From contig NZ_JAQNDL010000001.1 in assembly GCF_028368995.1 (NCBI RefSeq), positions 2,336,001 through 2,400,000 on the forward strand: 64,000 nucleotides of DNA, given 5' to 3'. The notes below the pieces were generated by a model. That model was not told the DNA's origin. It made no database searches and saw nothing but the letters and a program-made list of their open reading frames with translations. Both the position numbers and the translations under genes were made by a program. This DNA is from Nannocystis bainbridge. GTDB taxonomy: Bacteria > Myxococcota_A > Polyangia > Nannocystales > Nannocystaceae. Positions 1,168 to 57,052 of this stretch are shown in pieces (positions within the stretch are counted from its first letter, which is position 1; the number at the start of each line of letters is the position of its first letter).

Positions 1168-1171
<4 letters not shown>
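1..1171 (-). CDS. RND efflux transporter permease subunit (AcrB/AcrD/AcrF family), runs off the left edge
   Basis: Manual translation from ATG at 1171 (ATGA overlap with the upstream stop): MSAPSS...SLVRPVTMLMALLSAVVIGVVAFFGIPLELIP...YPNATAQDIEDRITRPLEQ...LVFEGDTDMDVAYREVRDRV, a typical AcrB N-terminus. Absent from the ORF track because it is truncated. Confidence 0.9.
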
Positions 1172-4779
<3,608 letters not shown>

Positions 4780-8486: not shown

Positions 8487-8560
8487 CGGGGTGTAGCGCA
8501 GCCTGGTAGCGCACCTGGTTCGGGACCAGGGAGTCGGAGGTTCAAATCCTCTCACCCCGA
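8487..8560 (+). tRNA. tRNA-Pro (anticodon CGG)
   Basis: CGGGGTG/CACCCCG acceptor stem, D arm GCGC-AGCCTGGTA-GCGC, anticodon arm CCTGG-TTCGGGA-CCAGG, T loop TTCAAAT. CCA is not encoded (CAA follows). Confidence 0.97.
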
Positions 8561-8740: not shown

Positions 8741-8776
8741 GACCAGTCTCTTCGAACATGTCCCGACGGACATTTG
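8741..8776. repeat. 14-bp-period motif array (3 degenerate units; isolated GACATGTC at 8716)
   Basis: GACCAGTC 8741, AACATGTC 8755, GACATTTG 8769. Confidence 0.55.
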
Positions 8777-8844: not shown

Positions 8845-10416
8845 ATGACCCGCACGCGCCTCGTCCCCCTCGCCGTCCTGCTGCTCCTCACCCCCGCCTG
8901 CGCGAAGCGGGCCGGCTACCACAGCGACGCCGCCGGGGGCTACGGCGCGACCGCGACCGCCGCCATGGAGGCGCCGAACAGCGAGAGCTACGCGCACGTC
9001 GCCGAGAACGCGTTCAAGCGGGTCGCCGACGACCCGCTCTCGACCTTCTCGATCGACGTCGACACGGCCTCTTACAGCAACGTGCGTCGCTTCCTCGAGG
9101 ACGGCCAGCTGCCGCCGGCCGACGCCGTCCGCATCGAGGAGATGATCAACTACTTCTCGTACGCCTACCCCGAGCCCGCGGGCGCGCAGCCGTTCTCGGT
9201 GCGGACCGAGGTCGCGGCCTGTCCGTGGAACGACAAGGCGCGGCTGGTGCAGATCGGGATCAAGGGCAAGTCGCTGGCGCCGGCCGAGATCCCGCCGCGC
9301 AACCTGGTGTTCCTGCTCGACGTCTCGGGCAGCATGGCGAGCCCCGACAAGCTGCCGCTGCTGCAGCGCTCGCTGACGATGCTGGTCGCCGACCTCCGCC
9401 CGGTCGACAGCGTCGGCATCGTCGTCTACGCCGGCGCCGCGGGCGTCGTGCTCGAGCCGACCTCCGACCGCGACGCGATCGTCGCTGCCATCGATCGGCT
9501 CTACGCCGGCGGCGCGACCAACGGCGGCCAGGGCATCGAGGCCGCCTACGCCTTGGCCCAGCGGTCGTTCCGCAAGGGCGGCATCAACCGCGTGATCCTG
9601 GCGACCGACGGCGACTTCAACGTCGGCGTCAGCAGCGAGGGCGCGCTGCAGCAGCTCATCGAGCGCAAGCGCGACAGCGGCATCTTCCTGTCGGTCCTCG
9701 GCTTCGGCACCGGCAACGTCAAGGACAGCACGATGGAGCTGCTGGCCGACAAGGGCAACGGCAACTACGCCTACATCGACGGCCTGCAGGAGGCGCGCAA
9801 GGTCCTGGTCGAGCAGGCCGGCGCCACCCTCGTCACGATCGCCAAGGACGTGAAGATCCAGGTCGAGTTCAACCCGCTCGCGGTCGGCGCCTACCGCCTC
9901 GTCGGCTACGAGAACCGCATGCTCGCGCACCAGGACTTCAACGACGATCGCAAGGACGCCGGCGAGATCGGTGCCGGTCACACCGTCACCGCGCTCTACG
10001 AGGTCCTGCCGCCCGGGGCCGAGGGCGCGGTGCCCGGCGTCGATCCGCTGCGCTATCAACGGCCCGCGTCGGCGGCCGCGACCGGCAGCGGCGAGCTCAT
10101 GCACGTCAAGCTGCGCTTCAAGCCGCCCGAGGGCGACGACAGCCAGCTGCTCACCATGCCGGTCGCCGACCCCGGCAGCGCCCTCGACGCGGCCTCCGAC
10201 GACCTCAGGTTCGCCGCCGCGGTCGCCATGTTCGGCATGAAGCTGCGCAACTCCGAGCACGCGAAGGCCATCTCGTACCGGCAGATCCGCGGCCTCGCCG
10301 AGGGCGCTCTCGGCCCCGATCCGCGGGGCTATCGCCGCGGCATGCTGGCCCTGCTCGGCCTCGCCGCCGGCCGCCAGGGCGAGCCGCTCGAGGCGCCTGT
10401 CGGCGTGGCCCGCTGA
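8845..10416 (+). CDS. YfbK-like vWA-domain lipoprotein (vWF_A + VWA + DUF3520-like)
   Basis: Lipobox LTPAC; STFSIDVDTASYSNVRR, RIEEMINYF, MIDAS LLDVSGSM, ATDGDFNVG, YRLVGYENR and DAGEIGAGHTVTALYE. Confidence 0.92.
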   Translation: MTRTRLVPLAVLLLLTPACAKRAGYHSDAAGGYGATATAAMEAPNSESYAHVAENAFKRVADDPLSTFSIDVDTASYSNVRRFLEDGQLPPADAVRIEEMINYFSYAYPEPAGAQPFSVRTEVAACPWNDKARLVQIGIKGKSLAPAEIPPRNLVFLLDVSGSMASPDKLPLLQRSLTMLVADLRPVDSVGIVVYAGAAGVVLEPTSDRDAIVAAIDRLYAGGATNGGQGIEAAYALAQRSFRKGGINRVILATDGDFNVGVSSEGALQQLIERKRDSGIFLSVLGFGTGNVKDSTMELLADKGNGNYAYIDGLQEARKVLVEQAGATLVTIAKDVKIQVEFNPLAVGAYRLVGYENRMLAHQDFNDDRKDAGEIGAGHTVTALYEVLPPGAEGAVPGVDPLRYQRPASAAATGSGELMHVKLRFKPPEGDDSQLLTMPVADPGSALDAASDDLRFAAAVAMFGMKLRNSEHAKAISYRQIRGLAEGALGPDPRGYRRGMLALLGLAAGRQGEPLEAPVGVAR

Positions 10417-10475
10417 GCCCGCGAGCGCCCCGCGATTTGCGGCCGCCCGCCGCCCGGCCCGGGCATACTCGCCGC

Positions 10476-12752
10476 ATGCGCCGCTCCCCGCGCGCCCTCG
10501 GCCTCGCCGCGGGCCTCCTCGCCCTCGCCGCCTGCGCCACCGGGCCGCGCGGCTACCCGACCGCCCCGACCCCGACCGGCGCCAATCAACCTGGCCCTTC
10601 GAACACGTCCCCCGGGACAGGTCCTTCGCAACCCGCCCCCAGCAACAACCACACCGGCCCCGACCCCGCGGTCGCCGTGGCTGCCGGCGGCCTCCACACC
10701 TGCGCCGTGCTGCGCTCCGGCGCGGTCGACTGCTGGGGCCGCGGCGCCAGCGGCGAGCTCGGCGACGGCAACCTGCGCGACAGCCCGCGGCCGGTGCGGG
10801 TGGTCGGCCTCGGCGAAGTCATCCAGCTCGCGCTCGGCGACCAGCACAGCTGCGCCCTCGTGCGCGGCGGCCAGGTCCAGTGCTGGGGCAGCAACGGCGC
10901 CGGTCAGCTCGGCGACGGCGCCGGCCGGCCCGGGGCCCAGAGCGCCCGCCCCACCCCCGTGCGCGGGCTCGCCGACGCCGTCGCCATCGCCGCCGGCCCG
11001 AGCCACACCTGCGCCGCCCGCAAGACCGGCCAGATCGCCTGCTGGGGCGACAACCGCCACGCCCAGGTCGGCGACCTCAGCCGCCAGGTGTGGGTCTCGC
11101 CCGCGCTGGTCCCCGCGGTCACCAACGCCGCCGAGGTCGCCGCCGGCGCGCGTCACACCTGCGCCAGAGTACAGGGCGGAAAGGTCATGTGCTGGGGGAC
11201 AGGTTCTCACGGACAGCTCGGCGATCGCGGCAGCGCCCGCGCGCCCGGCCTGGTCCCCGGGGTCGAAGGCGTGCAGGCGCTGGCGGCCGGCCAGGGCCAC
11301 ACCTGCGCGCTCAAGGCCGGCGGCGGCGCGCTGTGCTGGGGCGCCGGCTTCGGCAAGCTGCCGGTCGACATCAGCGGCGTGTCCGGGGCCGTGGCTCTGA
11401 CCGCCGGCGAGGCCCACACCTGCGCCCGCACCAGCGACGGCGCTGTCCGCTGCTGGGGCGACAACGCCAACGGCCAGCTCGGCGACGGCACCAGCGAGGA
11501 CCGCAAGGCCGGGGCCGCGGTCGTCGGCCTCACGCAGGCCGTCAGCGTCGCCGCCGGGGCCGACCACACCTGCGCCGCCCTGCGCGGCGGCGGCGTGGTC
11601 TGCTGGGGCAGCAACGGCGCCGGCGCGCTCGGCAACGGCGTCGCCGGCGAGGAGACCGAGGGCGTCGCCGTCAGCGTCCGCAACCTCACCGGCGTCAGCG
11701 AGATCGCCAGCGGCGACGACTTCTCCTGCGCCCTGTCCGGCGGCGCCGTGCAGTGCTGGGGCGCCGGCAACATGGGCCAGCTCGGCGACGGCTCGCAGGG
11801 CGACCGCGGCGGCGCCGACGACGTCACCGGCATCGAAGACGCGGTCCAGATCGCCGCCGGTCGCAACCACGCCTGCGCCCGCCGCAAGTCCGGCGCGGTC
11901 GCGTGCTGGGGTCAGAACGGCCGCGGCCAGCTCGGCGACGGCAGCAAGCAGACCCGCAGCCGCCCGGTCGCGGTCGCCGGACTGAGCGACGCGGTCGAGA
12001 TCGGCGCCGGTCGCGACCACACCTGCGCCCAGCGCAAATCGGGCCAGGTCGTGTGCTGGGGCCGCGGCGCCGAGGGCCAGGTCGCGGTCGGCAAGATCGA
12101 GGACGCCGACCGACCGACGATCGTCGCCGGGTCGTTCGGACAGGTCACGCAATTCGCGATGGGCGAGGTCCACAGCTGCGCGCTGCAGTCGAACCGGATC
12201 CCGCTGTGCTGGGGGCAGAACCGCTGGGGCCAGCTCGGCAACCTCGTCGGCGTCGGCACCCAGACCGGCCAGGCGGTGGTCCCGGTGATGAAGCTGCTGC
12301 CGGCCGAGGAGGTCACCGCCGGGGCGCTTCACACCTGCGCCCGCATCACCAACGGCGAGGTCTATTGCTGGGGTAACACCGACGACGGCCAGCTCGGCGC
12401 CGGCCTCACGATCGCCTCGGTCGCGCGCGTGCGCGTCAAGGACGTGCGCGGCACGATGGCGATCGCCGGCGGCGAGGCGCACACCTGCGCGGCGGTGGCC
12501 GGCGGCCAGATCTACTGCTGGGGTCGCGACAACGCCGGCCAGCTCGGCGACCGCGGCACGCAGCTGCAGCGGTTCCCCGTGGCCGGCCCGCGCATCGACG
12601 GCACCATCCGCCTCAGCGCCGGCTCCGAACACACCTGCGCCCTGCGCCAGAACGGCCGCGTGCTGTGCTGGGGCAGCAACCAGCGTGGCCAACTCGGCGG
12701 CGGCACCGGCAGCCAGACGACCACCCCGACCGCCGTGGTCGACATCCCGTAA
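10476..12752 (+). CDS. RCC1-repeat beta-propeller lipoprotein
   Basis: Lipobox LALAAC; about 14 repeats of AG.HTCA...V.CWG.N..GQLG.G. Start at ATG 10476. Confidence 0.92.
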   Translation: MRRSPRALGLAAGLLALAACATGPRGYPTAPTPTGANQPGPSNTSPGTGPSQPAPSNNHTGPDPAVAVAAGGLHTCAVLRSGAVDCWGRGASGELGDGNLRDSPRPVRVVGLGEVIQLALGDQHSCALVRGGQVQCWGSNGAGQLGDGAGRPGAQSARPTPVRGLADAVAIAAGPSHTCAARKTGQIACWGDNRHAQVGDLSRQVWVSPALVPAVTNAAEVAAGARHTCARVQGGKVMCWGTGSHGQLGDRGSARAPGLVPGVEGVQALAAGQGHTCALKAGGGALCWGAGFGKLPVDISGVSGAVALTAGEAHTCARTSDGAVRCWGDNANGQLGDGTSEDRKAGAAVVGLTQAVSVAAGADHTCAALRGGGVVCWGSNGAGALGNGVAGEETEGVAVSVRNLTGVSEIASGDDFSCALSGGAVQCWGAGNMGQLGDGSQGDRGGADDVTGIEDAVQIAAGRNHACARRKSGAVACWGQNGRGQLGDGSKQTRSRPVAVAGLSDAVEIGAGRDHTCAQRKSGQVVCWGRGAEGQVAVGKIEDADRPTIVAGSFGQVTQFAMGEVHSCALQSNRIPLCWGQNRWGQLGNLVGVGTQTGQAVVPVMKLLPAEEVTAGALHTCARITNGEVYCWGNTDDGQLGAGLTIASVARVRVKDVRGTMAIAGGEAHTCAAVAGGQIYCWGRDNAGQLGDRGTQLQRFPVAGPRIDGTIRLSAGSEHTCALRQNGRVLCWGSNQRGQLGGGTGSQTTTPTAVVDIP

Positions 12753-12765
12753 ATCCGATTAAATG

Positions 12766-12843
12766 GACATGTCTCGAGAGACATGTCCTTTAGGACATTC
12801 TTGATGGGACATGTCGCCATGGACATGTCTTTATCGACATGTC
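12766..12843. repeat. 14-bp-period GACATGTC array (6 units), intergenic
   Basis: Octamer starts at 12766, 12780, 12794 (GACATTCT), 12808, 12822 and 12836, with variable 6-bp spacers. Confidence 0.9.
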
Positions 12844-13107
12844 CTTCATGTCCGGAGGTCACCGCCCCTGCAGTCACGCGCCGGCGCCTCACGACGCGGG
12901 CGTGCTCATCGCTCTATGCGCCGACTCGCGCGCGGCCGCGCTCGGCGGATCACGAGCGGCGACGGAGCCACGCTCGGCGGGCTCGCCGGAGGATCACGAG
13001 CGGCTACCGACGCAGCGCCGTGAGCGGCGGAACCCACGGTGGGCGAGCGGCCTGCGGGTCGCTGCGTCGGCATGGACACGCGGCCGGCCTGCGCGCATCC
13101 TCCCGAC

Positions 13108-13854
13108 ATGCGCATCACGCTGCTTACCTTACCTGTCCTTTCGACCATCCTCGCATGCGGCCCTGAAGCCCCGGGCGACAGCGAGACCGAGCCCGGCACC
13201 ACGGGCACAGGCACCGCGGGCACCACTGACTCGGGGACGGCCTCGAGCGACTCGGTGTCGGCCACCGAGCCGCCCGCGACCACCGACGCCCTGCCGACCA
13301 CCGGCCCCGAGACCTCCACCTCCGGGCCCGTCGAGACCACCACCTCCGGGCCCGTCGAGACCTCCACCTCCGGGCCCATCGAGACCACCTCCGGTCCGGT
13401 CGAGACCACCACCTCCACCACCGTCGATCCCTCGACCACCACCACCGGCGAGACCGACGGTGCGCCCGGCTTCGAATTCGCCGTTCAGTTCTGGGCCGGC
13501 GGCCTCGATCACCTCACCCTGCGCATGGCCGCCCTCAAGGACGACTACTGCGTCGAGATCCAGTTCGCCCGCCCCGGCGGCTCCGAGTTGCCCGGCCTGA
13601 CCCTCCCGACCGACTGGTGGTACCAGGGCGCCACCGTCTCGCCGGGCGTCGTCGACTGCCTCGACTTCATGGCTTCGCTGCCGCCCGGGGCCTTCGCCGA
13701 CAGCATCGCCGGCTCCGCCGCCTGGACCACCGACTCGTTCTGCCCGTCGACGCTCGACGCGTTCGAGCTCCTGCTCGAGTTCCCGCAGGATGAGCCATGG
13801 GTGCCCGCCGATGTCCAGGTCTTCGGTGGTCCCGTCGCCGTCTCCGGCTGCTGA
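13108..13854 (+). CDS. Thr/Ser-rich lipoprotein, hypothetical
   Basis: MRITLLTLPVLSTILAC lipobox; ETSTSGPV tandem linker (about 24-bp repeats at 13309-13410); Cys-containing C-terminal domain. Confidence 0.8.
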   Translation: MRITLLTLPVLSTILACGPEAPGDSETEPGTTGTGTAGTTDSGTASSDSVSATEPPATTDALPTTGPETSTSGPVETTTSGPVETSTSGPIETTSGPVETTTSTTVDPSTTTTGETDGAPGFEFAVQFWAGGLDHLTLRMAALKDDYCVEIQFARPGGSELPGLTLPTDWWYQGATVSPGVVDCLDFMASLPPGAFADSIAGSAAWTTDSFCPSTLDAFELLLEFPQDEPWVPADVQVFGGPVAVSGC

Positions 13855-13919: not shown

Positions 13920-15383
<1,464 letters not shown>

Positions 15384-15604: not shown

Positions 15605-16318
15605 ATGCGAACTTACCTTTACGTGCTCCCGTTCACCTCGATGCTCGCGGCCTGCAGCAGCGGCGGCGGCGACTGCGGCTCGAGCTTCCGCTGCGACCAG
15701 CTCCCCGAGTCGGCCACCGCCACCGAGGGCACCGGCACCGCCACCGACGACTCGACCGGCACCGCCACCGAAGACCCCACCGGCACCGGCACCAGCACCT
15801 CGGAGACCGGCACCTCCGAGCCTGGCACCACCGCCGAGACCACCTCCGAGACCGGCACCACCGCCGAGCCCGGCACCACCGCCGAGACCTCCGAGTCCGG
15901 CACCAGCGAAGGTTCCTCGACCGGCGAGACCACCGGCGGTCCGCTCGTCGAGGGCCCCGCCAGCCACGGTGAGTCGTGCGCGCCCAACGACGGGGTCGCG
16001 GTCGAGTTCAAGATCGATCTGGCCGAGCGCGCCTGCGACAGCGACTGGCCCGAGGACGTCCCGCTGTTTCGCATCGTCCTGTTCAAGTCGATCGCGGAGC
16101 TCGAGCTCGGCCCGCACCAGCTCGCCGGTGAGGGCGGCTTCGCCTGGTACGACGACGGTGACGGCACGCCGGAGAACACCGACCAGGGCAACGTCCTCAT
16201 CCAGGAGATCACCGCCGACGGCCTGCGCGGCACCTACGAGGTCACGCTGCCCGACAACACCGTGCTGAGCGGCGCGTTCGACTCGATCTACTGCCCGCAA
16301 GACATCCTGTGCGGATGA
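15605..16318 (+). CDS. Thr/Ser/Glu-rich lipoprotein, hypothetical
   Basis: MRTYLYVLPFTSMLAAC lipobox, repetitive GTTAET linker, C-terminal domain with SCAPNDG. Confidence 0.78.
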   Translation: MRTYLYVLPFTSMLAACSSGGGDCGSSFRCDQLPESATATEGTGTATDDSTGTATEDPTGTGTSTSETGTSEPGTTAETTSETGTTAEPGTTAETSESGTSEGSSTGETTGGPLVEGPASHGESCAPNDGVAVEFKIDLAERACDSDWPEDVPLFRIVLFKSIAELELGPHQLAGEGGFAWYDDGDGTPENTDQGNVLIQEITADGLRGTYEVTLPDNTVLSGAFDSIYCPQDILCG

Positions 16319-16367
16319 ACATGCTCTGAAGGACATGTGCGAACGAACATGCCCGTTCGCACATGTC
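16318..16367. repeat. 14-bp-period motif array (4 units) between convergent genes
   Basis: AACATGCT 16318, GACATGTG 16332, AACATGCC 16346, CACATGTC 16360. Confidence 0.8.
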
Positions 16368-25446: not shown

Positions 25447-26367
25447 ATGATCGCGCACTCGATCCCGGGACCGGCGAAGCGGCCCGCTTTGAAGCTCGCG
25501 GCGGCCCTCCTCGCCGTCACGCTCCCGATCACGACGCTCCCGCTGCCGGCCCTGGCCGCCGAGGACGTCACGCCGGCCCGCGCCGCGGGCGTGCGCAAGA
25601 CCGTGCAAGATCGCGCGAAGCCGATGCTGAGCCGCGATCCCGGCGGCGCCGCCTCCCTGCTCGCCGGCGAGGCCAAGAAGACCAGCGACCCGGTCCTCTT
25701 CATCGACGCCGGCGAGGCTTACCTCGCCGCGGGCGTCGCCGAGCGCGACAAGGCCGCGCTCGAGCAGGCCATCGAGCAGGCCTCGATCGGCCTCGACATC
25801 GCCGCCTTCCAGCAGGACCCGCGCTGCGACCCCGGCTGGCAGCACCTCGACGCCGGCGAGTTCGAGCGCGAGGTGAGCCGCGGCAAGCAGGTCATCGAGG
25901 ACAGCGAGAAGGCCATCGCCGACCTCGACAAGCCGGTCGAGGCAGAGCCGCCGGTCGAGGAGCCGAAGAAGGACAAGGGCACCACCCCGCGCGACGGTCG
26001 CGGCCTCATCGCCGGCGGCGCGCTGGCGACCGTGGTCGGCGTCGGCGGCCTGGCGATGATCGGCGCCGGCCTGGCGCTCAGCAGCAAGGCGCAGAAGGAC
26101 GTCGACGCGCTCGACCCGTCGGCGATCGACTACGACGCCCAGTTCAACGACATCGACAAGAAGGGCAAGACCGCCAACGTGGTCGCCTACGCCGGCATCG
26201 GCGTGGCGGCCGTCGGCCTCGGCGTCGGCATCGCCCTGCTCGCGCTCGGCGTCAAGAAGCGCAAGGCCTACCGCGCCGAGCACGGCGGCAGCGAGACGGC
26301 GCGCTGGAACGTCGCCCCCGCGCTGGGCTACGGCTACGGCGGCCTCACCCTCGGCGGTCGCTTCTGA
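25447..26367 (+). CDS. secreted hypothetical protein with C-terminal hydrophobic Gly-rich helices ending LGGRF
   Basis: Signal peptide, helical N-domain and the typical myxobacterial GLTLGGRF terminus. Confidence 0.75.
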   Translation: MIAHSIPGPAKRPALKLAAALLAVTLPITTLPLPALAAEDVTPARAAGVRKTVQDRAKPMLSRDPGGAASLLAGEAKKTSDPVLFIDAGEAYLAAGVAERDKAALEQAIEQASIGLDIAAFQQDPRCDPGWQHLDAGEFEREVSRGKQVIEDSEKAIADLDKPVEAEPPVEEPKKDKGTTPRDGRGLIAGGALATVVGVGGLAMIGAGLALSSKAQKDVDALDPSAIDYDAQFNDIDKKGKTANVVAYAGIGVAAVGLGVGIALLALGVKKRKAYRAEHGGSETARWNVAPALGYGYGGLTLGGRF

Positions 26368-26405
26368 CCCCGAGGACATTCCCCTTCGACCAGGAACTTT
26401 CGGCC

Positions 26406-26801
26406 ATGTCCCTTCGTACACCCGCCGTCCTGTCCGCCCTCGCCCTCGCCCTGACCCTCGGCGCCGCCGCCCCGGCCCGCGCCGCCGCCGCCTGCTCCGA
26501 CGCCAGCGGCGTGTGCCTGTCGGACGACAAGGCCAAGTGGGAGCCCGACACCTCGCTGTCGACCAAGCAGCTCAAGGCCAAGCGCAAGGGCCCCGCCTGC
26601 AAGGTCGCGTTCGAGATCGACGGCGGCCGCGGCAGCGTGTTCGTCAACGGCCGCTACGCCGGCACCGCCCCGGGCGCCAACCTGTCGCTGCTGCCCGGCA
26701 AGCACGACATCCAGGTCCGCGACGGCCAGAAGATCCTCGCCGAGGGCGTGCTCACGGTGCCCAAGGCCGGCAGCCTGCAGGTCACCGTGCGCCACGGGTG
26801 A
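26406..26801 (+). CDS. PEGA-domain secreted protein
   Basis: Signal peptide; SVFVNGRYAGTAP...LLPGKHDIQV PEGA-like pattern. Confidence 0.75.
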   Translation: MSLRTPAVLSALALALTLGAAAPARAAAACSDASGVCLSDDKAKWEPDTSLSTKQLKAKRKGPACKVAFEIDGGRGSVFVNGRYAGTAPGANLSLLPGKHDIQVRDGQKILAEGVLTVPKAGSLQVTVRHG

Positions 26802-28199: not shown

Positions 28200-28847
28200 A
28201 TGATGAAAGCCTTCCCCTCGCCTACCGACCTCGCTCCCCGTCACGCCCTCGCTGCCGACCTGACGCTCGGCAGCGCCGTGGGGACGCTGTTCGGCCTGCT
28301 CGTGGGCCTGTCCGGCTCGACCGCGGTGGCCGCGATCGCGGCGGTGGCCACCGCCCTCGCCGGCTCCGTGGTGGTGCTCCGCGGCTCCGAGACCGCCATC
28401 CGCCCGGCCCGCGCCGGCGCGCTCGCCGTGGCCGCCGTGGCCTCCCTGGTCTTCGGGACATGGCTCCAACGCCATGACGCGCTCGGCCCGACGCCGGCCG
28501 AGGACGTGGCCGCGTGGCAAGCCGCGGGCCTCAGCAAGCGCGACGCGCTGACCGTCACCGCCGGCATGTGGACCGGCTCGCAGCTGCAGCTGGCTCCCGC
28601 CGCCAAGGCCCCCAAGGCGGTCGACCAGCGCAAGCTGACCCCGTCGAAGCGCATGGCCAAGCGCTCGGCCGAGCAGTACTGCGCCGACCTCGAGCGCCGC
28701 AAGTACACGCCGGTCGAGGAGCTCCGCTCGTGGAAGATGCGCGGCGACTCGTGGCGCCAGGCCGCCAAGTTCGTCGAGACCCTTCCGTGCGGCCTCCGCC
28801 TCAAGACGATGAACGAACTGCGCGCGGTCGCCTGCGGCCGCCACTGA
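28200..28847 (+). CDS. hypothetical membrane protein
   Basis: Three hydrophobic segments followed by a basic soluble domain; high-GC3 codon usage. Confidence 0.65.
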   Translation: MMKAFPSPTDLAPRHALAADLTLGSAVGTLFGLLVGLSGSTAVAAIAAVATALAGSVVVLRGSETAIRPARAGALAVAAVASLVFGTWLQRHDALGPTPAEDVAAWQAAGLSKRDALTVTAGMWTGSQLQLAPAAKAPKAVDQRKLTPSKRMAKRSAEQYCADLERRKYTPVEELRSWKMRGDSWRQAAKFVETLPCGLRLKTMNELRAVACGRH

Positions 28848-31132: not shown

Positions 31133-32518
31133 TCAGCGATCGCCGAGGTCGGAGAGCTTGCCGTTGAGGCGGTTCACGTCGAGCATGCGCGCCATGCCCT
31201 CGCCGCCGGCGGTCGCGTACGAGGCGTGGCGCGCGAAGTCGCCGTGGGCCAGGCGGTAGAGCTCGTGCGCGCCGGTCGGGTCGCCGTGCAGACGGGCGCG
31301 ATCGCCGAGGCGCTCGGCGACGGAGGCCCGACGCAGCAGGTGGACATCGTCGCAGACGTCGATCGCGCGCAGGGCCGCGAGCGCTGAGACATGGTCGCGC
31401 TCGCCGGCGAGCCGCTCGACGTCGGCCAGGGCCGCCGCCTCGGGGTCGGGCTCCTCACGCGCCAGCAGCTCGTCGTAAAGCTCGAGCCAGATCCGCCGCA
31501 CGTCCTCGGCCAGGCGGCGCAGCGCGTCGTGGCGCTCGCCGGTGAAGCAGGTCGCCAGCATCTCGATCGCCAGCGGCGGCGACTGATCGGCCCACCTGGG
31601 CTCGAGGACATGTCCCTCGCAACATGTCTCTGAGGCCATCAGACCCATGCGGCCCATGGTGCGGCGCGGGTCGTTCGGATCGTCGGGCGTGCGCGCCAGC
31701 TCGGCGCGCACGTCGAGCAACACCGCGGCGAGCGGCCGGGGCCGGCGCTCGTCGCGGTCGGTGGTGGCGAGGCGGACCTGCTCGTCGGCGTGGAGGAAGA
31801 AGACGCCGCGGTGGAGCAGCGCGTTGCCGCAGCGGACCACCCCACCGAGCGCGTCTTGCTGCGAGTCGGCGGCGCCGAGCTCGACGGCGCGGCGGAAGTG
31901 GCCCACGGCGCGCCGCAGGTGGCCGCGACGCTCGACGAGGCCGGCCAGGCGGAGGTGGGCCTCGGCGGGCCGGTAGCAGCCGCAGCGCAGCGCCAGGCGC
32001 AACGCCGACTCGGCCTCGGCGTGCTCGCCGAGCGCGAGGAAGATGCGTGCGCGGTTGAGGTAGGCGTCGCCGTACCATGCGCGTCGGGCCAGCGCCTGTT
32101 GCAAGTCCTCGAGGCCGCCGCGCGGGTCGCCGGCCTTGACCCCGCGCAGCCAGCCGCGCAGGTTCCACACCTCGGCCCAGTCGGGCCGCCGCTGCAGCGC
32201 CGCCTCGACCGGCACCAGCGCCTCGGCTGGCTGGCCGACGGCCACGCACGCGTCGGCGAAGTTGTAGAGCGCCGCGGTGGTGTCGGGTGCGGCGGCCACA
32301 GCGTCGCGCAGCAGGTCGAGGCCCTGTCCCATCGCTTCTGGCCGATGAGACAGGCTCGTCGTCAGCAGCCAGCCGGCGTAGTTGAGCGCCCCGGCGTGGC
32401 GCGGGTCGAGCTTGATCGCCGCCTCGAAGGCGGCCAGCGCCGCGTCGACCTCACCGGCCCGGGCCCGCCGCTCGCCCTCGGCGTACGCTTCGTCGGCTGT
32501 CTTGAAGGACATGTCCAA
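31133..32518 (-). CDS. tetratricopeptide repeat protein
   Basis: Multiple TPR consensus units (ALAAFEAAIKLDP..AGALNYAG; AEVWNLRG; AYLNRARI; AHLRLAG). Start TTG 32518 or ATG 32512. Confidence 0.8.
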   Translation of the reverse strand: MDMSFKTADEAYAEGERRARAGEVDAALAAFEAAIKLDPRHAGALNYAGWLLTTSLSHRPEAMGQGLDLLRDAVAAAPDTTAALYNFADACVAVGQPAEALVPVEAALQRRPDWAEVWNLRGWLRGVKAGDPRGGLEDLQQALARRAWYGDAYLNRARIFLALGEHAEAESALRLALRCGCYRPAEAHLRLAGLVERRGHLRRAVGHFRRAVELGAADSQQDALGGVVRCGNALLHRGVFFLHADEQVRLATTDRDERRPRPLAAVLLDVRAELARTPDDPNDPRRTMGRMGLMASETCCEGHVLEPRWADQSPPLAIEMLATCFTGERHDALRRLAEDVRRIWLELYDELLAREEPDPEAAALADVERLAGERDHVSALAALRAIDVCDDVHLLRRASVAERLGDRARLHGDPTGAHELYRLAHGDFARHASYATAGGEGMARMLDVNRLNGKLSDLGDR

Positions 32519-33263: not shown

Positions 33264-34817
33264 CTAGAAGAGCTTCCAGCCCTTCTTGGCGGGCGCTGCT
33301 GGCGGCGTGGGTGCGGCGGGCTTGGGCGCTTCGGGGGCCTTGGTGGTAGGCGCGATCGCAGCGTCCGGCGTCGGCGCGCGCGGGCTCGAGCCCGACGGCG
33401 GCTTGCCGGGCCCGCCATGCTTGGCGAGCAGCGCCCTCGCGCGGGCCAGCAGCGGCTGGCCGCGCGCCGGATCGACCATCGCCACGAAGCAGGCGTAGCC
33501 GTGCACGGCGGCCAGCACGTCGCCGCCCTTGCCCCAGCGCTTGCCCGCGGGCCCGTCCTTCTCGATCTGGAACAGCGTCGCCCGGAACTTGCGCAGCTCG
33601 TCGCGGGCCACGCTCGGCTTGTCGTTGACGACGATGCCGGTGACCTCTTGCCGGCGACCGCGACGCATTACCCGCGTCTTGTCCGGGTGCACCACGAAGC
33701 CCTCGTGCGCGACGATGTCGGCGACCCCGCGCAGCAGCTTGCCGACGCGCTTGCTCTCGGCCGCCTCGCCGCGGCCGCTGAACGTGAGGTCGTCGGCGTA
33801 GCGGGTGTAGACGAAGCCCAGCGCCTGCGCGAGCCCGTGCAGGCGGCTGTCGAGGCGGCGGCACAGCAGGTTGGTGATCGCCGGGCTGCACGGCGAGCCC
33901 TGCGGCAGGTAGCGCTGCCCGCGGGCGACGAACCAGGTCGTGCCGTCGAGCGCGACCTCGTCGACGTCCGGCTCGGTGCAGATCAGCGCCAGCGTCGTCG
34001 CCACCGACTCGCTGTAGCCGAGGTGGCGGATGGCGCCCTTGACCCGCGGGAACGACACCGTCGGGAAGAAGTCCTTGAGGTCGAGGTTGACGACCACGTC
34101 GGCGCCGACGTGGGGCTTGGCGTTGGAGACGATCGAGCGCCCGGCGACGAACCCATGAGCGTGCGGGTCGACGTTCAGCTTGGCGAAGATGTGCTCGAGC
34201 GCCCACGTCTGGGCCCGCTTGAGGCGGGGCATCGGCGCGGAGATCAGGCGGAAGCCGCCTGTCTTTTTGGGCAGGAGGAAGCGGCGGTAATGCGAGACGC
34301 GCGAGACCTTGCGGTCGTAGGCGAGGAAGCGCAGCGCCTTGACCTCGACGCCGATCGCCTTGGCCAGCTCCTCGGGCGTGGCGAGCAGCGGCAGGCCCGC
34401 TTGCTTCAGCGTCTCTGCGTCGGCTGTCCTGTGGGACATGCCCCCGGAGACATCCACGCCGAGGTGGAGGATCTCGCCGGCCTTGCGCGCGGCCCACTTC
34501 TGGGCCCGCTCCTGGCGCTCACGCTCGCGCCGGGCCTTCGTCTCCTTCTGCTTGCGCCGCGACTCGAGCAGCCGGGCCTTGCGCTGCTCGGCGATCAGGA
34601 CCTTCTCGTTGTAGAGCTTGCGCGACTTCTCGCGCAGCTCGGCGAGCTGGCGCTCGAGCTCGCCGCGGCGCCGAATCTCCTCGGCCGGGTCGTGCGGCAC
34701 CGTTCCTTGCGCCGGCCAGAACCCGAGGCGAACCATCTCCTCGAGGATCACTTCCTCCTTGGAGGTGCTGCGGATCCGCTCGTACAGGGCTTCGCGGGTT
34801 GTCGGTTGGCCGGCCAT
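33264..34817 (-). CDS. retron reverse transcriptase with N-terminal charged/coiled-coil extension
   Basis: PKKTGGFRLISAP, AHGF, region X NAKPH, DLKDFFP, LPQGSPCSP, YTRYADDLTFS and region Y RQEVTGIVVN. Confidence 0.96.
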   Translation of the reverse strand: MAGQPTTREALYERIRSTSKEEVILEEMVRLGFWPAQGTVPHDPAEEIRRRGELERQLAELREKSRKLYNEKVLIAEQRKARLLESRRKQKETKARRERERQERAQKWAARKAGEILHLGVDVSGGMSHRTADAETLKQAGLPLLATPEELAKAIGVEVKALRFLAYDRKVSRVSHYRRFLLPKKTGGFRLISAPMPRLKRAQTWALEHIFAKLNVDPHAHGFVAGRSIVSNAKPHVGADVVVNLDLKDFFPTVSFPRVKGAIRHLGYSESVATTLALICTEPDVDEVALDGTTWFVARGQRYLPQGSPCSPAITNLLCRRLDSRLHGLAQALGFVYTRYADDLTFSGRGEAAESKRVGKLLRGVADIVAHEGFVVHPDKTRVMRRGRRQEVTGIVVNDKPSVARDELRKFRATLFQIEKDGPAGKRWGKGGDVLAAVHGYACFVAMVDPARGQPLLARARALLAKHGGPGKPPSGSSPRAPTPDAAIAPTTKAPEAPKPAAPTPPAAPAKKGWKLF

Positions 34818-36870: not shown

Positions 36871-39800
36871 GCTGCACCTGTCCCTTCGTCCGCACCGGCG
36901 GCTGACGGATCTCGATCGGCAACGGCACGTCGCCGAAGCGCTGGCGGACCCCGACCATGGCGATCACGCTGGCCGCCCGGTCGCCGATCGCCATCGTCAA
37001 GCTCTGGCGGGTCATCAGCGCGGCGACCAATTGCGCGGCCTCGGGGCTCTTCTCCGCCTCGGCCGTCAGGAACCGGAACACCCGCGCCTTGGCGATCCGG
37101 CCGCGGTTGACCCGCGACAGCACGCCGAGGAAGTACGGCTCGAGCTCGCGCAGGCGCTCGATCGAGCCGGCCGCGTATTGCTCGAGGTAGTTGGTGGCGA
37201 ACAGCTGCACGTCGGCCGACGGGTGCTCGCTGAGGCGGCGCAGGTAGTCGAGGCCGTGCTCCTCGCGGAAGCAGCGGGTGATCATCTCGCGCCCGAACGC
37301 CTGCACGTCGGCGCGCACCGAGTCGGCGATCGCCACCAGCACGTCGGGCGGGAAGTCGGCCGGCTGCAGGCGCTCGCGGAAGAACTCGAAGGCGAACGCG
37401 CGCGAGTCGTCCCACTTGGCGTCGAGGATCCGGATCGCGTGCGGCAGCTCGCGCCCGATCCGCGCGACGTTGCGGTCGAAGAAGCTCCACGCCGCCTGGC
37501 GCACCGAGAGGATCTCGTGGCTGGCCAGGCGCGCGACCTCGGCGACGTCGAGGCTGTCGGGGTCGACGTTGCGCGCCAGCAAGATCCCGCCGAGCTCCTG
37601 CGCCGCGGAGGCCTTGGCCCGCAGGAGGCGCATGACGAGCTCCTTGTCGACGGAACCGAGGCCCTGCTCGAGGTCGCTCTTGAGCAGGCGCAAGACGAAG
37701 CTGTGCACGCCCTCGTGGGTCTCCTTGACCAACAGCGTGCCGATCAGCGGGGCCACGATCGCGGCGGCGAACCGCGGGTCGCGGGCGGCCAGGCGCTGGA
37801 CCACCGGGCGGATCGCGTCGCGCTGGTCGACGTGGGCCGAGGTCAGGAAGGCCAGCATCAGCCCACCGCGGTCGACGAGCACGCTGTCGGGCAGCTCGCC
37901 GAACAATCTGATGCCGAGGCTGCGCACCGCGGCGTGCTTGCTCTCGACCGCGAGCGCGGCGATGAGCTGCTCGGGCAGGTCCTCGGGGCGCGTGTCGTGG
38001 TTGAGCAGGATGTTGGCCGCCAGCAGCTGCGCCCCCTCGAGCGGGTGGGCGACCAGGTCGACGACGACGTTGAGGCCGACGCCGCGCAGCGGCCGGGCGA
38101 ACGCCCGCATCAGCGTCTCGCCCACGTCGGCCGCGATCGCGTCGGCGTCCGGCGTGGCCGGTAGCGCCAGCACGCCGGCCACGGCCCGGGCGATCAGCGT
38201 CGACGCGGCCGCGGCCGCCAGCGGCACGCCCTGCAGCAGCACGCGGGCGTAGGCGCGGGTGTCGGCGTGGGCCGAGAACAGCAGCGCGAGCACCAGGTCG
38301 TGGGCCCCGGCGAAGCGGGCCCGGTCGGCGTCGATCCACCCGTGGGCCAGCTTGCGCGCGGCCGGGACGGCGCAGCTCGCCACCGCGGCGACGAGCGCGA
38401 GGTCGGGGTTGTCGGCGTCGTAGCGGGCCCGGGCCAGCTCGAAGCCGAGCTGCGCGGTGACCTCGAACGGCCGCTCGAGCAGCATGACGATGCCGTCGAC
38501 GTCGAGCTGGGTCAGGAAGTCCTTGTTGTCGCGGATCGCCCTGACCGCAAATTCATGTACCAAAGTACATGTGCTTTCGGACAGGAGGTGCATGAGGCCG
38601 AACGGGACCTGGTCCCAGACCTTCGGGAACGCCTCCTCGCGGCTGGCGGGGGCCGGGTCGCCGGGCTTGTAGTTGGCGCGGCAGCGCCAGGTGGCGCCGC
38701 GCACCCGCGGCTCGTAGCGCGGGCTGTTGCCGCCGTAGAGGATGGCGTTGAAGGCGTGGTAGGCGGCGAACCGGTCCCAGCGGGTGACCTTGTTCTTGCG
38801 CGTGCTGTAGCTGTAGCGCGTGGCCGTCTTGACCTCCTGGCCGTCGGCGTCGGAAAACGGCAGCAGCACGCCGACCGCCAGCTTGACGTAGCCCATCGCG
38901 TCGCCGGCCTCGGCCAGGCGCCGCAGCGAGCGGAAGGCCCGGCGGCGCAGGTAGTCGCGGGTCTTGCTCGAGTAGGCCAGGCGCGAGTCGGGCCGCTTCA
39001 GCTCCTTGCTGACGTCGGTCCAGCGGCCGCCGCCGAGGAAGATGGTGCGGCGCGCACCGAAGGCCGCCGGGGTCTTTTCGATGCGATAGGCGATGAGGCC
39101 GAACACCTCGGCGTCGCCGCGGACCTCGGCCATCTTGAGCAGGTGGCGGACGTGACGGAAGTTGCCGACCTGCAGGGGGATCGTGCGCAGGCCGGCGAGC
39201 AGGCCCGGGCGCACGGTGTCGTCGTCGATGCGATAGATGTCCTCGAGCGCGGCGCTGTCGCCGGCGGCCAGGGCGGCCAGCAGCACGGCGGTGAACGCCT
39301 CCGGATCGCCCCTGCCGGCGAACTCGCGCAGCGCGGGCGGCAGAGCGGCGCGCGCCCGCGCGGCCACGGCCTCGCGCAGCTCGTCGCTCCAGCCGCGCAG
39401 CATCTCGAGCTGCATGCGCATCACCATGTCGCTCTTGCTCGCCCGCGGGATGAACAGCTTCAGCGCCTCGTCGAGGCTGCTGGGCTGCAGGCCAGGTTCG
39501 TTGCGGGCCCGCGCGAGCGCGGTGAAGGTGTCGGCGCCGCCGCAGCGGGCCAGAGCCCAGGCGATGCAGTAGTCGAGCATTTGATCGCCGGAGCCGATCA
39601 GGCGGATGAGGTGCGGCACGGCCTCGCGCAGGCGGTACTCGCCGGCCCGCCAGACCACCCGCGCCGGCTTCCACGGCTTGCGCCCGCCGCCGCCCTGCAA
39701 ACGGGCGAGGATCGCCTCGGCCGGGGTGGTGTAGGCGGGGCTGGCCTTTCGGCCAGGTGCCGCCGCGGCCGTCTCGCTCGGCGCGCCGCCCAGCGTGCGC

Positions 39801-52769: not shown

Positions 52770-53605
52770 CGGGGCTCCTCTCGGCCGGCGGCGCGCAGGC
52801 TTTGGCGCGCGTGCTGCCGCGCGGCCTGGGCCGTGCGGGCCGGCGCGGCCCCCACGAGCACCGGCTCGAACAGCAGCGCGCCGAGGCCGAGCAAGATGAC
52901 GTCGAGCGCGGCCATCTGGCCGAGGTAGCTCGGGAGGTTGGGATTCTTGTCGAGCAGCGCGCGGGTGGTCACCAGCGCGAACATCAACACCGGGGTGGTG
53001 ACCGGGTAGAGGATCACCGCGAGCAGCATGTTCTTGCCGCCGCCGCCGGCCAGCCCGGCGGCGAACAGGGTGCCGATGGCGACGTAGCCGAGGCAGCCGA
53101 GGACCACGAGCGCGACTGTCTCGAGGGGCATGTCCCAAAAGACCTGTCCCGCGGGGAACATCGAGGCCAGCCCGGGCACCAGCAGGGCGCAGCAGACCAG
53201 CAGCACCAGCAGGGTCGAGCCGGCCTTGGCGACGTAGATCGCCAGGCGCTCGACCGGCGCGGCCAGCAGCGCCCGCAGGGTGTCGGCCTCGCGCTCGCGA
53301 TCAAAGGCGCGGGTCAAGGTGATGGTGCCGACGAACGCGACCGTGAGCCACAGCAGGCCCGGAACCGCGGGCAAGGTGTGCTTCTTCTCGAGCGCCGCGA
53401 ACGACAGGTAGAACATGCCGAGCACGACCAGGGTGAAGAAGGTCGAGGTCAGGACCAGCTCGAGGTCGCGCAGCTCTTGCCGCAGCTCGCTGCGGAGGAG
53501 GAGCAGGCTCTGGCGGAGCAGACGCACCGGCGCCAGGTGTAGCACAGGGTCGGCGCGCGGCGGAACCGGCCGATGCGAAGCCTGCGGCCAGCCGCCGCGG
53601 CTCAC
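52766..53605 (-). CDS. ccmB: heme exporter protein B
   Basis: PGLLW, RAFDREREADTLRALL and LLAVILYPV; located between ccmA and ccmC. Start uncertain (about 53544-53605). Confidence 0.87.
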   Translation of the reverse strand: MSRGGWPQASHRPVPPRADPVLHLAPVRLLRQSLLLLRSELRQELRDLELVLTSTFFTLVVLGMFYLSFAALEKKHTLPAVPGLLWLTVAFVGTITLTRAFDREREADTLRALLAAPVERLAIYVAKAGSTLLVLLVCCALLVPGLASMFPAGQVFWDMPLETVALVVLGCLGYVAIGTLFAAGLAGGGGKNMLLAVILYPVTTPVLMFALVTTRALLDKNPNLPSYLGQMAALDVILLGLGALLFEPVLVGAAPARTAQAARQHARQSLRAAGREEPR

Positions 53606-54360: not shown

Positions 54361-56294
54361 GCCTTGTCCTGCCACGCGGCGCCCGGGTCGGCGTGGCGCG
54401 GCCGCGAGTCGAGGGCGTCGAGCTGGCAGTAGACCTGGTCGAGGGCGGCGACGATCGGCTCGCGCTCGCCGGGGCTGGCGGCCTCGAGCTTGCGCATCAG
54501 GGCCGCCTTGCGCTTCAGTAGCCGCTCGCGCAAGGAGGCGCGCGGGCGCAGAGCGAACGCGAGGCCGCAGGCGAACGCGACGAACAGACCGAAGCCGAGG
54601 CCGAGCCACTTGTAGGTGCGCGGGCGCGTGACGAGGCCGTCGATCACGAGGTCGTAGGCCTGGCCCTGCGGCATGGCGCCGATCTCGTAGACGTCGAGGT
54701 CGACGCGGCTCTCACCGTTCTCGTGCGGCGGCCGCACCGGGCCCTTCTTGGCGCCCTTGGTGAGCTTGAGGCCGTCGACCACGACGGTGCGGCCGTCGAC
54801 GATCGGGAACGGGGCGCTCCAGCGGATCTCGGCGGTGCCATCGTGCTCGAGCAGGTAGGCGGTCGAGAGGTCGATCAGCTCGCCCGGCGGCAGCGGCCCG
54901 CTGATGGTGGTGAACGGCGCGTCCGCGTCGTGGTCGAGCACCTGGTCGGCGCGGTCGCGCACGACCAGGCCGGTGGCCCCTTCGGCGCCGTTGAGCTTGT
55001 AGGGCTTGCCGGGCCAGTAGGCGGACTCGCCGTCGACGAACACCTGCAGCAGGTGGTCGACCCGCGCGAGGTCGTTCTCCATCGACTCGACGCCGAACTG
55101 CACCGCCGAGCGCACGCGCGTCAGGTCGGTGGTGACCGGGAAGACGCGCATCTCGACGGCGACGCCCATGCGCTCGTCGAGGGTGAAGAAGGCCGACTTC
55201 CACGGGGCCCCGGCGTACGAGGCCTCGACGTGGAACAGGCCCTCGCCGGTGAGCGGGATGTCGCCGATGCGGGCGACGCCGTCCTCGCCGGTGGCGTCCT
55301 CGAAGCGCTTGCTGAAGCCGGTCGTGTCCTGCTTGACGATCGCCACCGGGATGCCGTTGATCGGCCGATCGTCGGGGCCCACGACGGTGACGCGCACGCT
55401 GCCGGGCAAGATCGTCGGCACCGCGCGCGGGCCCATCATCTGCCGCTTCTGCGGGGCCTGCGGGCGCAGGACCGCCAGCACCAGGGCCATGCCGACGTCC
55501 TTGCCGGTCAGCGAGAACGGCTGGCTGCGCTCGGTGCCGGTCGGCAGGTCGGCCTCGGCCACCAGCGAGACGTCGGCCGCGAGGGCGTCGAGCTCGGGGA
55601 AGCGCGAGGTGCCGCGGGCGTCGCTGACGGCCTCGCGGGTCTCGGTCTTGCCGTCGGGCCCGGTCAGCAGGAGTCGAACCTTGACGCCCACGACCGGGGT
55701 GCCGCCGCGCAGGTCGAGGGTGCCGACCAGCAGCGTGCCCTTCGGCGTGCCCGGGTTGTCGAACGCGACGCCCGGCAGCGGCACGTCGGCCTGGCTCGGC
55801 GGCGGCGCGGCGGGGCCCGAGCCCGGGTCGGTCGCGGGGCCGGCGGCGGCGCCGGACGAACCTGCCCCTTTGACCAGGAGCACGCGGAAGCCCTGGGCCG
55901 GCGACACGGCGATCGGCTGCGAGGCCTGGCGCTCGCCGTCGAGGTCGGCGCGGGCGACCGCGGTGCCGCCGTGGAACGCGGAGAGATCGGTGAAGTTGGC
56001 GCGGCCGTCCTGGCCGGCCACGACGGTCCGCGTCTCGGTCTTGCTGCCGTCCTGCGACTTCAGCTCGAGCTCGACGGTGACGCCCACCGCGGGCTGGCTG
56101 AACGAGCCGAGCAGCGCGCGCACGGTGATCGTGCCCGGCTCGGTCTGCGGGTCGGCGCGCGGGATGCCGGACATCGCCCGCGGGTCGATCGGCGGCCCGC
56201 CGGCCGGCTGGGCCGAAGCATGTCCCGTAAGACATGTCCCAACGAACATGAACGAAAGGGCAGCCGCGCGCAGCGGCCGGCGTGACGCAGTCAT
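54357..56294 (-). CDS. secreted multi beta-sandwich protein with C-terminal TM anchor, in the ccm operon
   Basis: Signal peptide; three carboxypeptidase-regulatory-like repeats (GQDGRANF, DARGTSRF, GEDGVARI); C-terminal TM; ATGA coupling on both sides. Confidence 0.75.
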   Translation of the reverse strand: MTASRRPLRAAALSFMFVGTCLTGHASAQPAGGPPIDPRAMSGIPRADPQTEPGTITVRALLGSFSQPAVGVTVELELKSQDGSKTETRTVVAGQDGRANFTDLSAFHGGTAVARADLDGERQASQPIAVSPAQGFRVLLVKGAGSSGAAAGPATDPGSGPAAPPPSQADVPLPGVAFDNPGTPKGTLLVGTLDLRGGTPVVGVKVRLLLTGPDGKTETREAVSDARGTSRFPELDALAADVSLVAEADLPTGTERSQPFSLTGKDVGMALVLAVLRPQAPQKRQMMGPRAVPTILPGSVRVTVVGPDDRPINGIPVAIVKQDTTGFSKRFEDATGEDGVARIGDIPLTGEGLFHVEASYAGAPWKSAFFTLDERMGVAVEMRVFPVTTDLTRVRSAVQFGVESMENDLARVDHLLQVFVDGESAYWPGKPYKLNGAEGATGLVVRDRADQVLDHDADAPFTTISGPLPPGELIDLSTAYLLEHDGTAEIRWSAPFPIVDGRTVVVDGLKLTKGAKKGPVRPPHENGESRVDLDVYEIGAMPQGQAYDLVIDGLVTRPRTYKWLGLGFGLFVAFACGLAFALRPRASLRERLLKRKAALMRKLEAASPGEREPIVAALDQVYCQLDALDSRPRHADPGAAWQDKA

Positions 56295-57052
56295 GGGCCG
56301 ATCTCCCCCGAGCTCGCCGAGTTGCCGCGCTTCTCGCCGACGCTCACCTTGCTGCTGCGCGCGAGCGAGACGCCGCAGTGCTTGCAGAACTTGGCGTCGT
56401 TGTCGTTGTTGCCGACGCAGTTGGCGCAGATCCGCGAGGTGCGGTCGAGGTCCGGCGCCGAGATCTCGGTCATGTTGCGCACCGGCGCCGATGACTGCAG
56501 CGGCGGCGGCGTGGCGTCCTCGACCGGCGCGCGGGTCGGGGTCGCCGTCGTCGCGGCCTCCGGGCTGGCCTGGCGGTCGAGCTCGGACAGGACCTTCTGC
56601 AGCTCGGGGTGGAGGTCGCCGCCGCCGTCGAGGGCGCGCATGACCTCGATCGCGCGCACGCGGTAGGTGCCGATCACCGCCTCGAAGTCGGCGGTCGACA
56701 GCTTGCCCATGCCGTGGTCGAACTCGAGCTCCTTGATCGCGCGCAGCAGCCGGCGCTTCTCCTCGCGCAGCTCCGACTGGCTGAAGTGGCCGACGCCGCG
56801 GCCGACCTGGGCCAGCGAGTCGGGCCGGGCCAGCGCGCGCACCATCGCGAACATGCGGCCGAGCGCGTAGACCAGCATGGCGCCGGCGACCGCGAGGGCG
56901 ATCGTCGCCTCCTCGAGCGGGCCGGCGGCGCGGGCGGCGAACAGCACCAGCGCGAACGCGAGGAGCGCGAGGCCGGCGGTCCACAGGGCGGTGCGCGGGG
57001 GCTTCGGCGCAGCCGCGGCGCGAGCTTCCTTGCTCTGCGGCGCTTCGGTCAC
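56291..57052 (-). CDS. CcmI-like membrane protein with C-terminal zinc ribbon
   Basis: Two TM helices; LLRAIKELEFDHGMGKLSTADF; CANC...FCKHCG. Confidence 0.72.
   Translation of the reverse strand: MTEAPQSKEARAAAAPKPPRTALWTAGLALLAFALVLFAARAAGPLEEATIALAVAGAMLVYALGRMFAMVRALARPDSLAQVGRGVGHFSQSELREEKRRLLRAIKELEFDHGMGKLSTADFEAVIGTYRVRAIEVMRALDGGGDLHPELQKVLSELDRQASPEAATTATPTRAPVEDATPPPLQSSAPVRNMTEISAPDLDRTSRICANCVGNNDNDAKFCKHCGVSLARSSKVSVGEKRGNSASSGEIGP

Follow-up and report, generated by a model that had tools for sequence, protein, structure and literature searches.

A 64,000-nucleotide stretch of Nannocystis DNA, here called the window (positions 2336001-2400000 of contig C1 of the source genome, G000; 11.05 Mb, 71.5% GC, 90.5% complete), was analysed for an array of phased 14-bp units that lies across one repeat of an RCC1-repeat (RLD) protein gene. 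Four units stand in line at 11160-11215 (TGCGCCAGAGTACA, GGGCGGAAAGGTCA, TGTGCTGGGGGACA and GGTTCTCACGGACA), exactly as quoted in a preliminary description of this DNA, which had proposed that the motif was written into coding sequence with rare synonymous codons. The patch is in frame in the RCC1 open reading frame (ORF) and its translation, CARVQGGKVMCWGTGSHGQ, is a normal RCC1 blade. Scores of 7.7, 3.9, 9.4 and 9.9 bits were obtained for the four units, where the genome-wide 99th percentile is 1.6 bits, and the best 14-bp chain in 2000 synonymous shuffles of the gene reached 17.6 bits against the 31.0 bits observed. Seven of the 19 codons of the patch end in A or T (AGA, GTA, GGA, ACA, GGT, TCT, GGA); for the RCC1 gene the figure is 40 of 759 (5.3%). 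The same gene carries a second, weaker array with eight A/T-ending codons in its low-complexity N-terminal linker, and a canonical intergenic array follows immediately behind its stop codon (Table 1).

The unit, TGYCC-N4-GGRCA, is dyad-symmetric and stacks head to tail. The scoring matrix was built from 93 in-array units flanked by two exact units (an unbiased set), and an array was defined as an in-register chain of at least 20 bits. The motif is strand-symmetric. Its best-conserved letters (about 90%) are the TG and CA at the two ends of the unit, which meet as CA-TG between neighbouring units; the repeating feature is therefore a 10-bp junction palindrome, GGRCA-TGYCC, every 14 bp. The string TGTC-N6-GACA occurs 22 times in the window (0.65 expected) and 3663 times genome-wide, with peaks of neighbour spacing at 14 (144), 28 (88), 42 (61) and 56 bp (36). 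With this cut, a scan of the genome at period 14 gave 2695 arrays, compared with 34, 78 and 39 at periods 15, 16 and 17, and long coding arrays were found to run to up to 11 units.

Sorted by our own gene calls, these arrays comprise 1535 in intergenic DNA, 837 within ORFs and 323 that cross an ORF end; the density in coding DNA is about one tenth of that in intergenic DNA. Convergent gaps hold 0.53 arrays each, tandem gaps 0.20 and divergent gaps 0.10, and the starts of intergenic arrays peak between -10 and +15 bp from the stop codon. The main habitat of the element is thus the gene end, in the first few bases behind stop codons and above all between convergent genes, and the earlier picture of a code overlaid on genes has to be amended in that respect, although the excess in coding DNA which it implied is large. 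Three within-gene synonymous-codon shuffles of all genes yielded 34, 36 and 43 arrays in ORFs, against 837 in the real sequence; for coding arrays of at least 30 bits the counts were 4, 5 and 4 against 274, and wrong-period controls in coding DNA gave 4-21 arrays. Of the coding arrays, 610 sit deep in a gene, over 150 bp from its ends, and have on either side a 150-bp flank in the same frame with a G/C fraction of third codon positions (GC3) of at least 0.85; they are spread evenly along the length of the gene. Inside arrays 36.7% of codons (4755/12963) end in A or T, compared with 5.4% outside (6012 genes). The proposal that GC3 should drop at motif matches was borne out. Among 1727 patches of low GC3, defined by 6 or more A/T-ending codons in 19, arrays of period 14 were met in 398, whereas arrays of periods 15, 16 and 17 were met in 2, 4 and 1; low-GC3 patches therefore coincide with the motif far beyond chance. 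Nine of 11 genomes of the genus carry the double-junction pattern, the other two being 88% and 64% complete, and it was found in none of 30 genomes searched outside the genus; the array family is genus-restricted. Array deserts of 62-200 kb were also seen (C1:1098867-1299344, C2:742488-837412, C5:429818-493832 and C1:533335-595784), in which GC is slightly lower (0.689-0.697 versus 0.715), and genes of at least 7 kb hold a single array in 122 kb. Recent acquisition of the DNA, or the presence of large biosynthetic clusters, may account for the deserts.

Constraint on the coding copies was assessed by comparison with a collinear 956-kb contig of G003, another species of the genus (about 89% identity), of which 623 kb were aligned by contig-versus-genome BLAST. 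A/T third positions of the source genome were identical in G003 at 284 of 348 sites inside arrays (81.6%) and at 1808 of 6090 sites outside (29.7%); for G/C third positions the corresponding values were 82.3% and 85.4%. Broken down by place in the unit, third positions were identical at a rate of 0.90 in the arms (n=462) and 0.70 in the unit centres (n=165), with a host-gene baseline of 0.82, and junction positions 0, 1, 12 and 13 reached 0.92-0.98 even where they were third positions. Of 58 interior coding arrays that could be aligned, 46 were free of insertions or deletions (indels), and 40 of these 46 still scored at least 20 bits. As arms and junction are kept and centres are free, conservation tracks the 14-bp register rather than the codon register, and as arrays in coding DNA are kept at fast-changing codon positions, the DNA itself is read there. 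The constraint, which the preliminary description had correctly supposed to act at the DNA level, falls on the sequence of the arms, above all on the CATG junction, and not on the protein.

The RCC1 patch follows the same pattern. Ten orthologs align across it with no indels inside the patch, and five genomes at 90-94% identity retain it almost letter for letter. Among six close genomes, A/T third positions of the gene vary at 1 of 7 sites in the patch versus 22 of 31 elsewhere (Fisher p=0.0096); for all third positions the difference (2/18 versus 201/735) is not significant. Three distant orthologs (about 70-74% identity) have the same length, use GC-ending codons throughout the patch and lack the array, as in CGC ACC CGG CCC GGC AAG GTC GTC TGC TGG GGC ACC GGC CCC GAG GGC CAG. 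The ancestral coding sequence of the repeat was near-unit already (GGCCCCGAGGGCCA), and a few changes were enough. The ortholog of G009, a further species of the genus, carries two good units in the patch; on contig C8 of that genome, in the stretch orthologous to 11188-11215, CFG replaces the conserved CWG (TGG to TTC) inside a well-formed unit, TGTGCTTCGGGACA. The linker array of the RCC1 gene varies in length between species, with gaps relative to G003 and both gaps and insertions relative to G009. At the single exact unit of the NCS1 permease gene, whose nearest named relative is a protein of an uncultured Nannocystis sp. (81% amino-acid identity), a Nannocystis metagenome-assembled genome reads CGC ATG TCC CAC GAG ACC GGC where the source genome reads CGC ATG TCC AAA GAG ACA GGT, again with no indel. 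Comparison of orthologs thus supports an origin by substitution at the RCC1 and NCS1 sites, as had been proposed; that the changes were synonymous holds in part only, since the Met codon (ATG) which supplies the CATG junction of the RCC1 patch is a non-synonymous, amino-acid choice.

Further members of the family in the window are collected in Table 1. Of the additional overlays named in the preliminary description, those in the NCS1, TPR, reverse-transcriptase and CcmB genes and at 28447-28474 do fall in coding sequence (CDS) and the one at 56221-56262 is intergenic; the starts given there as 34421, 53113, 56217 and 31607 are each four bases out of the true register. The reverse-transcriptase gene product has 517 residues, and its two-unit array is retained in G003. 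Some gene-end arrays, among them those at 16308-16363 and 26365-26420, start before the stop codon, so that the last codons and the stop itself (for example, TGA within GGATGAACA) form part of the first unit. A tRNA gene (8487-8560) is followed by a two-unit array at 8745-8772.

Table 1. Array-bearing genes and arrays in the window (positions count from the first letter of the window).
Feature	Position	Strand	Remarks
RCC1-repeat (RLD) protein gene, host gene	10476-12752	+	758 aa; 10 RCC1_2 stretches
RCC1-patch array, four phased 14-bp units over one RCC1 repeat	11160-11215	.	31.0 bits in total
Second, weaker coding array in the RCC1 gene	10578-10647	.	5 units; 23.2 bits
Canonical intergenic array	12756-12853	.	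7 units; 86 bits; begins 4 bp past the RCC1 stop codon
NCS1 permease gene, one exact unit, TGTCCAAAGAGACA	14875-14888	.	16.7 bits; codons AAA, ACA, then GGT
Five-unit coding array in the AcrB/RND transporter gene (1168-4779, minus)	2456-2525	.	41 bits; 12/23 codons A/T-ending
Coding stretch	28447-28474		18.5 bits; in CDS; slightly below the 20-bit cut
Three-unit coding array in the TPR gene (31133-32518, minus)	31597-31638	.	31.5 bits
Two-unit coding array in the reverse-transcriptase RVT_1 gene (33264-34817, minus)	34425-34452	.	24.7 bits
Three-unit coding array in a 1425-aa ORF without Pfam family	38542-38583	.	31.6 bits; 8/14 codons A/T-ending
Three-unit coding array in the CcmB/ABC-2 gene	53117-53158	.	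31.2 bits; identical in G003
Three-unit array, intergenic by our own gene calls	56221-56262	.	40.3 bits; 28 bp behind the stop of gene 56291-57052 (minus)

Substitution is not, however, the general route by which coding arrays arose. In a tblastn comparison with about 1 Mb of G009 (about 75% identity), 55 interior arrays were spanned by alignments with a flank identity of at least 0.5; 28 of these showed no indel (5 kept, 5 partial, 18 absent) and 27 differed in length (15 longer in G000, 11 longer in G009, 1 balanced). Amino-acid identity inside most of the 55 arrays was about 0.2-0.4, compared with 0.5-0.7 in their flanks, which again argues against purely synonymous writing. Identical centres in CDS arrays recur preferentially three units apart (17/305 at lag 3 versus 5/843, 5/574 and 1/152 at lags 1, 2 and 4), a preference not found in intergenic arrays; coding arrays therefore grow also by frame-preserving 42-bp duplications, and on these alignments their origin is best described as mixed. 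The strongest of them encode a 14-residue periodic peptide, GHVxxDMSxxTGPx, which is the junction read in three frames (C3:1347890-1348044, C1:2998879-2998991 and 2456-2525 of the window; for example, PVAAAMSSGTGPFE repeated). The tripeptide DMS occurs 420 times in the encoded proteins, against 154 expected from composition, and 194 of the 420 lie within arrays. On the sense strand of coding arrays, G replaces T at unit position 0 in 21% of units versus 8% on the mirror side, as would be expected if Cys codons were avoided; TGT (Cys) is often replaced by GGT (Gly) in the periodic peptide. For the bulk of the arrays an origin by copying and pasting was rejected, as among 1469 arrays no more than 67 pairs of loci have three consecutive centres in common (1.5 in shuffles).

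We consider it reasonably probable (roughly 60%) that the RCC1 patch truly belongs to a genus-restricted family of 14-bp dyad-symmetric arrays which would be read as double-stranded DNA and bound cooperatively. Reading as double-stranded DNA is suggested because the arm positions vary independently and the motif is strand-symmetric. Arrays in genes would then arise in place, by two routes. Along the first, point substitutions would improve a chance proto-site, synonymously where possible and with amino-acid changes at tolerant residues, as at RCC1 and NCS1; along the second, length changes and in-frame 42-bp (three-unit) duplications would accumulate in poorly constrained protein segments, and the resulting arrays would be translated as the 14-residue periodic peptide. 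Once formed, an array is held by the DNA-sequence constraint on its arms and especially on its CATG junctions. The predicted reader is a dyad-symmetric protein that would bind along the array cooperatively, one dimer per unit, and coding copies may be kept since such binding would have a local role: it could block transcription, set a boundary or help in the handling of topology; occupancy would matter at gene ends and at some intragenic places.

Several points weigh against this reading. Purifying selection and an ongoing bias in repair or conversion cannot be told apart by conservation. The gene calls were our own, based on GC3 (8028 genes, 83% coding) with no annotation used, and some of the G009 'orthologs' with a flank identity of 0.5-0.6 may be paralogs. 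Domain searches of the genome for RAYT and PadR proteins gave no match. The sites, put at roughly one locus per 3 kb in the preliminary description, are not regularly spaced: inter-array distances are over-dispersed (coefficient of variation 1.70), and nothing in them points to a chromosomal ruler with regular marks. The distance from a coding array to its closest non-coding array (median 2217 bp) also does not exceed that measured from random positions in coding DNA (median 2418 bp), so that no need to fill gaps lies behind the coding sites; regular spacing and gap filling were both rejected on these grounds. Finally, G-U combinations slightly outnumber A-C combinations on the sense strand of tandem gene-end arrays (829 versus 658, three arm pairs summed), and some RNA-level selection could be at work there.

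That excess is one of the observations which would be expected if the units were hairpins in the transcript, acting as bidirectional terminators or as protectors of mRNA 3' ends, with the coding copies being by-products or conditional attenuators unwound by translating ribosomes. The palindromic unit, the start of arrays around the stop codon and the gradient from convergent to divergent gaps would all suit such an element. Compensatory covariation between the arms was nevertheless absent: Watson-Crick counts were close to independence at all five arm pairs (at pair 2-11, 2979 observed versus 2948 expected, with C2 found more often with A11 than with G11), and pairs 2-11, 3-10 and 4-9 are Watson-Crick in only 42%, 57% and 55% of units, respectively. 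Hairpin formation is therefore not the selected property, and the compensatory changes expected in the stem of a hairpin-type terminator (intrinsic or TRIT-like) were not seen. The best-kept part of the array, the CA-TG junction between units, moreover stands outside the logic of a stem-loop, and coding arrays lack the G-U/A-C asymmetry (184/204, 227/201 and 194/184) yet are conserved. In an Rfam gathering search of the window the tRNA gene was the only match and the arrays matched no RNA family. No RNA dataset was listed over positions 10400-13400 of the window, where six metagenome runs had small shares (0.10-0.17), as contigs only. We regard an RNA-level element as unlikely.

Similarly unlikely, in our judgement, is molecular drive without local function, in which a sequence-biased process such as uptake-sequence-like transformation bias, motif-specific mismatch repair or short-patch gene conversion would accumulate the motif wherever protein constraint permits. 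The pattern agrees in several respects with what a study of uptake sequences describes (Findlay and Redfield, 2009; PMC2817400), and the low amino-acid identity inside arrays, the surplus of DMS, the deserts of up to 200 kb and the near-empty long genes are what such a process might leave behind. A bias towards a single word, however, leaves the strict 14-bp phasing and the concentration at stop codons unexplained, and since the arms recur without their centres, one array is unlikely to have been made by simple conversion from another. A guided version of the process, in which arrays would be written and maintained without ordinary selection on each site, strikes us as quite improbable. A protein that polymerises along DNA, 14 bp at a time, would in this version steer repair or short-patch conversion towards the arms it recognises, and proto-sites beside an existing unit would be converted one unit after another, with the centres left free; if it were true, a genus-specific DNA 'script' would be spreading through intergenic and coding DNA alike and reshaping the proteome (DMS, GHV and TGP peptides).

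A mobile element resembling repetitive extragenic palindromic (REP) sequences or miniature inverted-repeat transposable elements, inserting in frame and leaving coding copies as tolerated, decaying insertions, would account for the length differences in 27 of the 55 coding arrays compared with G009, for the 42-bp duplications and for strong arrays that encode a periodic peptide of their own. We nevertheless hold it to be very unlikely, as no Y1 (RAYT) transposase was found in the genome, arrays have not been copied from each other, indels are missing at RCC1 and NCS1 and the A/T third positions do not decay. That a low-GC3 patch merely resembles the motif by chance is hardly credible: the RCC1 consensus coding GGC CCC GAG GGC CAG is already near-unit in distant orthologs, yet all 2000 synonymous shuffles of the gene stayed below 23 bits, shuffled genomes gave 4-5 arrays of at least 30 bits versus 274 observed and the patch is kept in six genomes, so that chance was rejected at the level of both gene and genome.

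The arrays show plainly, in a bacterium, how a signal in the DNA can contend with the protein code. Conservation at several hundred coding sites follows the 14-bp register and not the 3-bp register of codons, and the signal has measurably altered which peptides the organism makes. Fragments in native and synonymously recoded form would provide a handle on the DNA reader in a poorly studied genus rich in natural products. For annotation, low-GC3 patches and odd periodic peptides in these genomes should be taken neither as errors nor as foreign DNA.

A description of the element was not found among the matches listed in literature searches on Nannocystis repeats and palindromes, TGTCC-GGACA palindromes and myxobacterial REPs. 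Several known systems were set beside it. REP sequences and bacterial interspersed mosaic elements (BIMEs), which are associated with RAYT transposases, consist of palindromes that directly follow genes, are most frequent where two genes converge and often occur in clusters. The Nannocystis arrays share with them the extragenic position directly behind genes and the preference for convergent over tandem and divergent gaps (0.53, 0.20 and 0.10 per gap). They differ in the 14-bp unit with its free 4-bp centre, the exact head-to-tail register, the lack of arm covariation, the absence of descent relationships among copies and the hundreds of conserved coding copies (837/2695 in ORFs). A six-frame search of the source genome (90.5% complete) for PF01797 (Y1, IS200/IS605-type RAYT) gave no match, the control matching in 6 of 14 known genomes, and membership of the REP/RAYT class was rejected, as no such transposase was found and the copies are not related by descent. 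HIP1 (GCGATCGC) of cyanobacteria, with which the preliminary description had itself compared the motif, is a single 8-mer palindrome that is over-represented genome-wide including coding DNA and kept between related genomes, and a link to a methyltransferase has been proposed for it. Like HIP1, the Nannocystis unit is a short palindrome, over-represented in coding DNA as well and kept beyond codon expectation; unlike HIP1, which has neither phased arrays nor a gene-end bias, it is both phased and biased to gene ends. In the met boxes of MetJ (8 bp) and the heptad arrays of omega (7 bp), ribbon-helix-helix dimers bind tandem operator boxes cooperatively. Runs of 2-10 short symmetric boxes, each directly following the last in head-to-tail order, are a common feature, and a reading by one dimer per box, in contact with the dimers on either side, may apply in Nannocystis too; MetJ and omega have a handful of regulatory sites per genome or plasmid, whereas thousands of Nannocystis arrays stand at gene ends and inside genes.

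Uptake sequences of Pasteurellaceae and Neisseria (uptake signal sequences, USS; DNA uptake sequences, DUS) accumulate at poorly conserved positions, roughly double the frequencies of the tripeptides they encode and are absent from genes without homologs, according to the study cited above (PMC2817400). The Nannocystis unit resembles them as a group-specific word with thousands of copies, many of them in genes, placed at poorly conserved amino acids, raising the tripeptides it encodes and missing from seemingly recently acquired genes. USS and DUS are single asymmetric 9-12-mers without phasing, though, while the Nannocystis unit is palindromic, keeps a strict 14-bp register and is concentrated at stop codons, with no link to DNA uptake. 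As to how such a site might be bound, the operator of the Bacillus subtilis padC gene for PadR, CATGT-N8-ACATG, places two CNTG contacts 14 bp apart under one dimer, the most-needed bases being C6, T8 and G9; in the crystal, where the DNA is pseudo-continuous, a 'bridge' site is taken up by PadR dimers as well (PMC5728393). The CATGT-N8-ACATG geometry of the arrays is identical, and the best-kept bases, C12 and A13 followed by T0 and G1, match those critical for PadR. A six-frame search for PF03551 (PadR) gave no match in the source genome, with matches in 4 of 10 other same-genus genomes and in 14 of 14 controls, and PadR itself was rejected as the reader; the resemblance therefore concerns how a site of this kind can be read, and not the identity of the protein that reads it.

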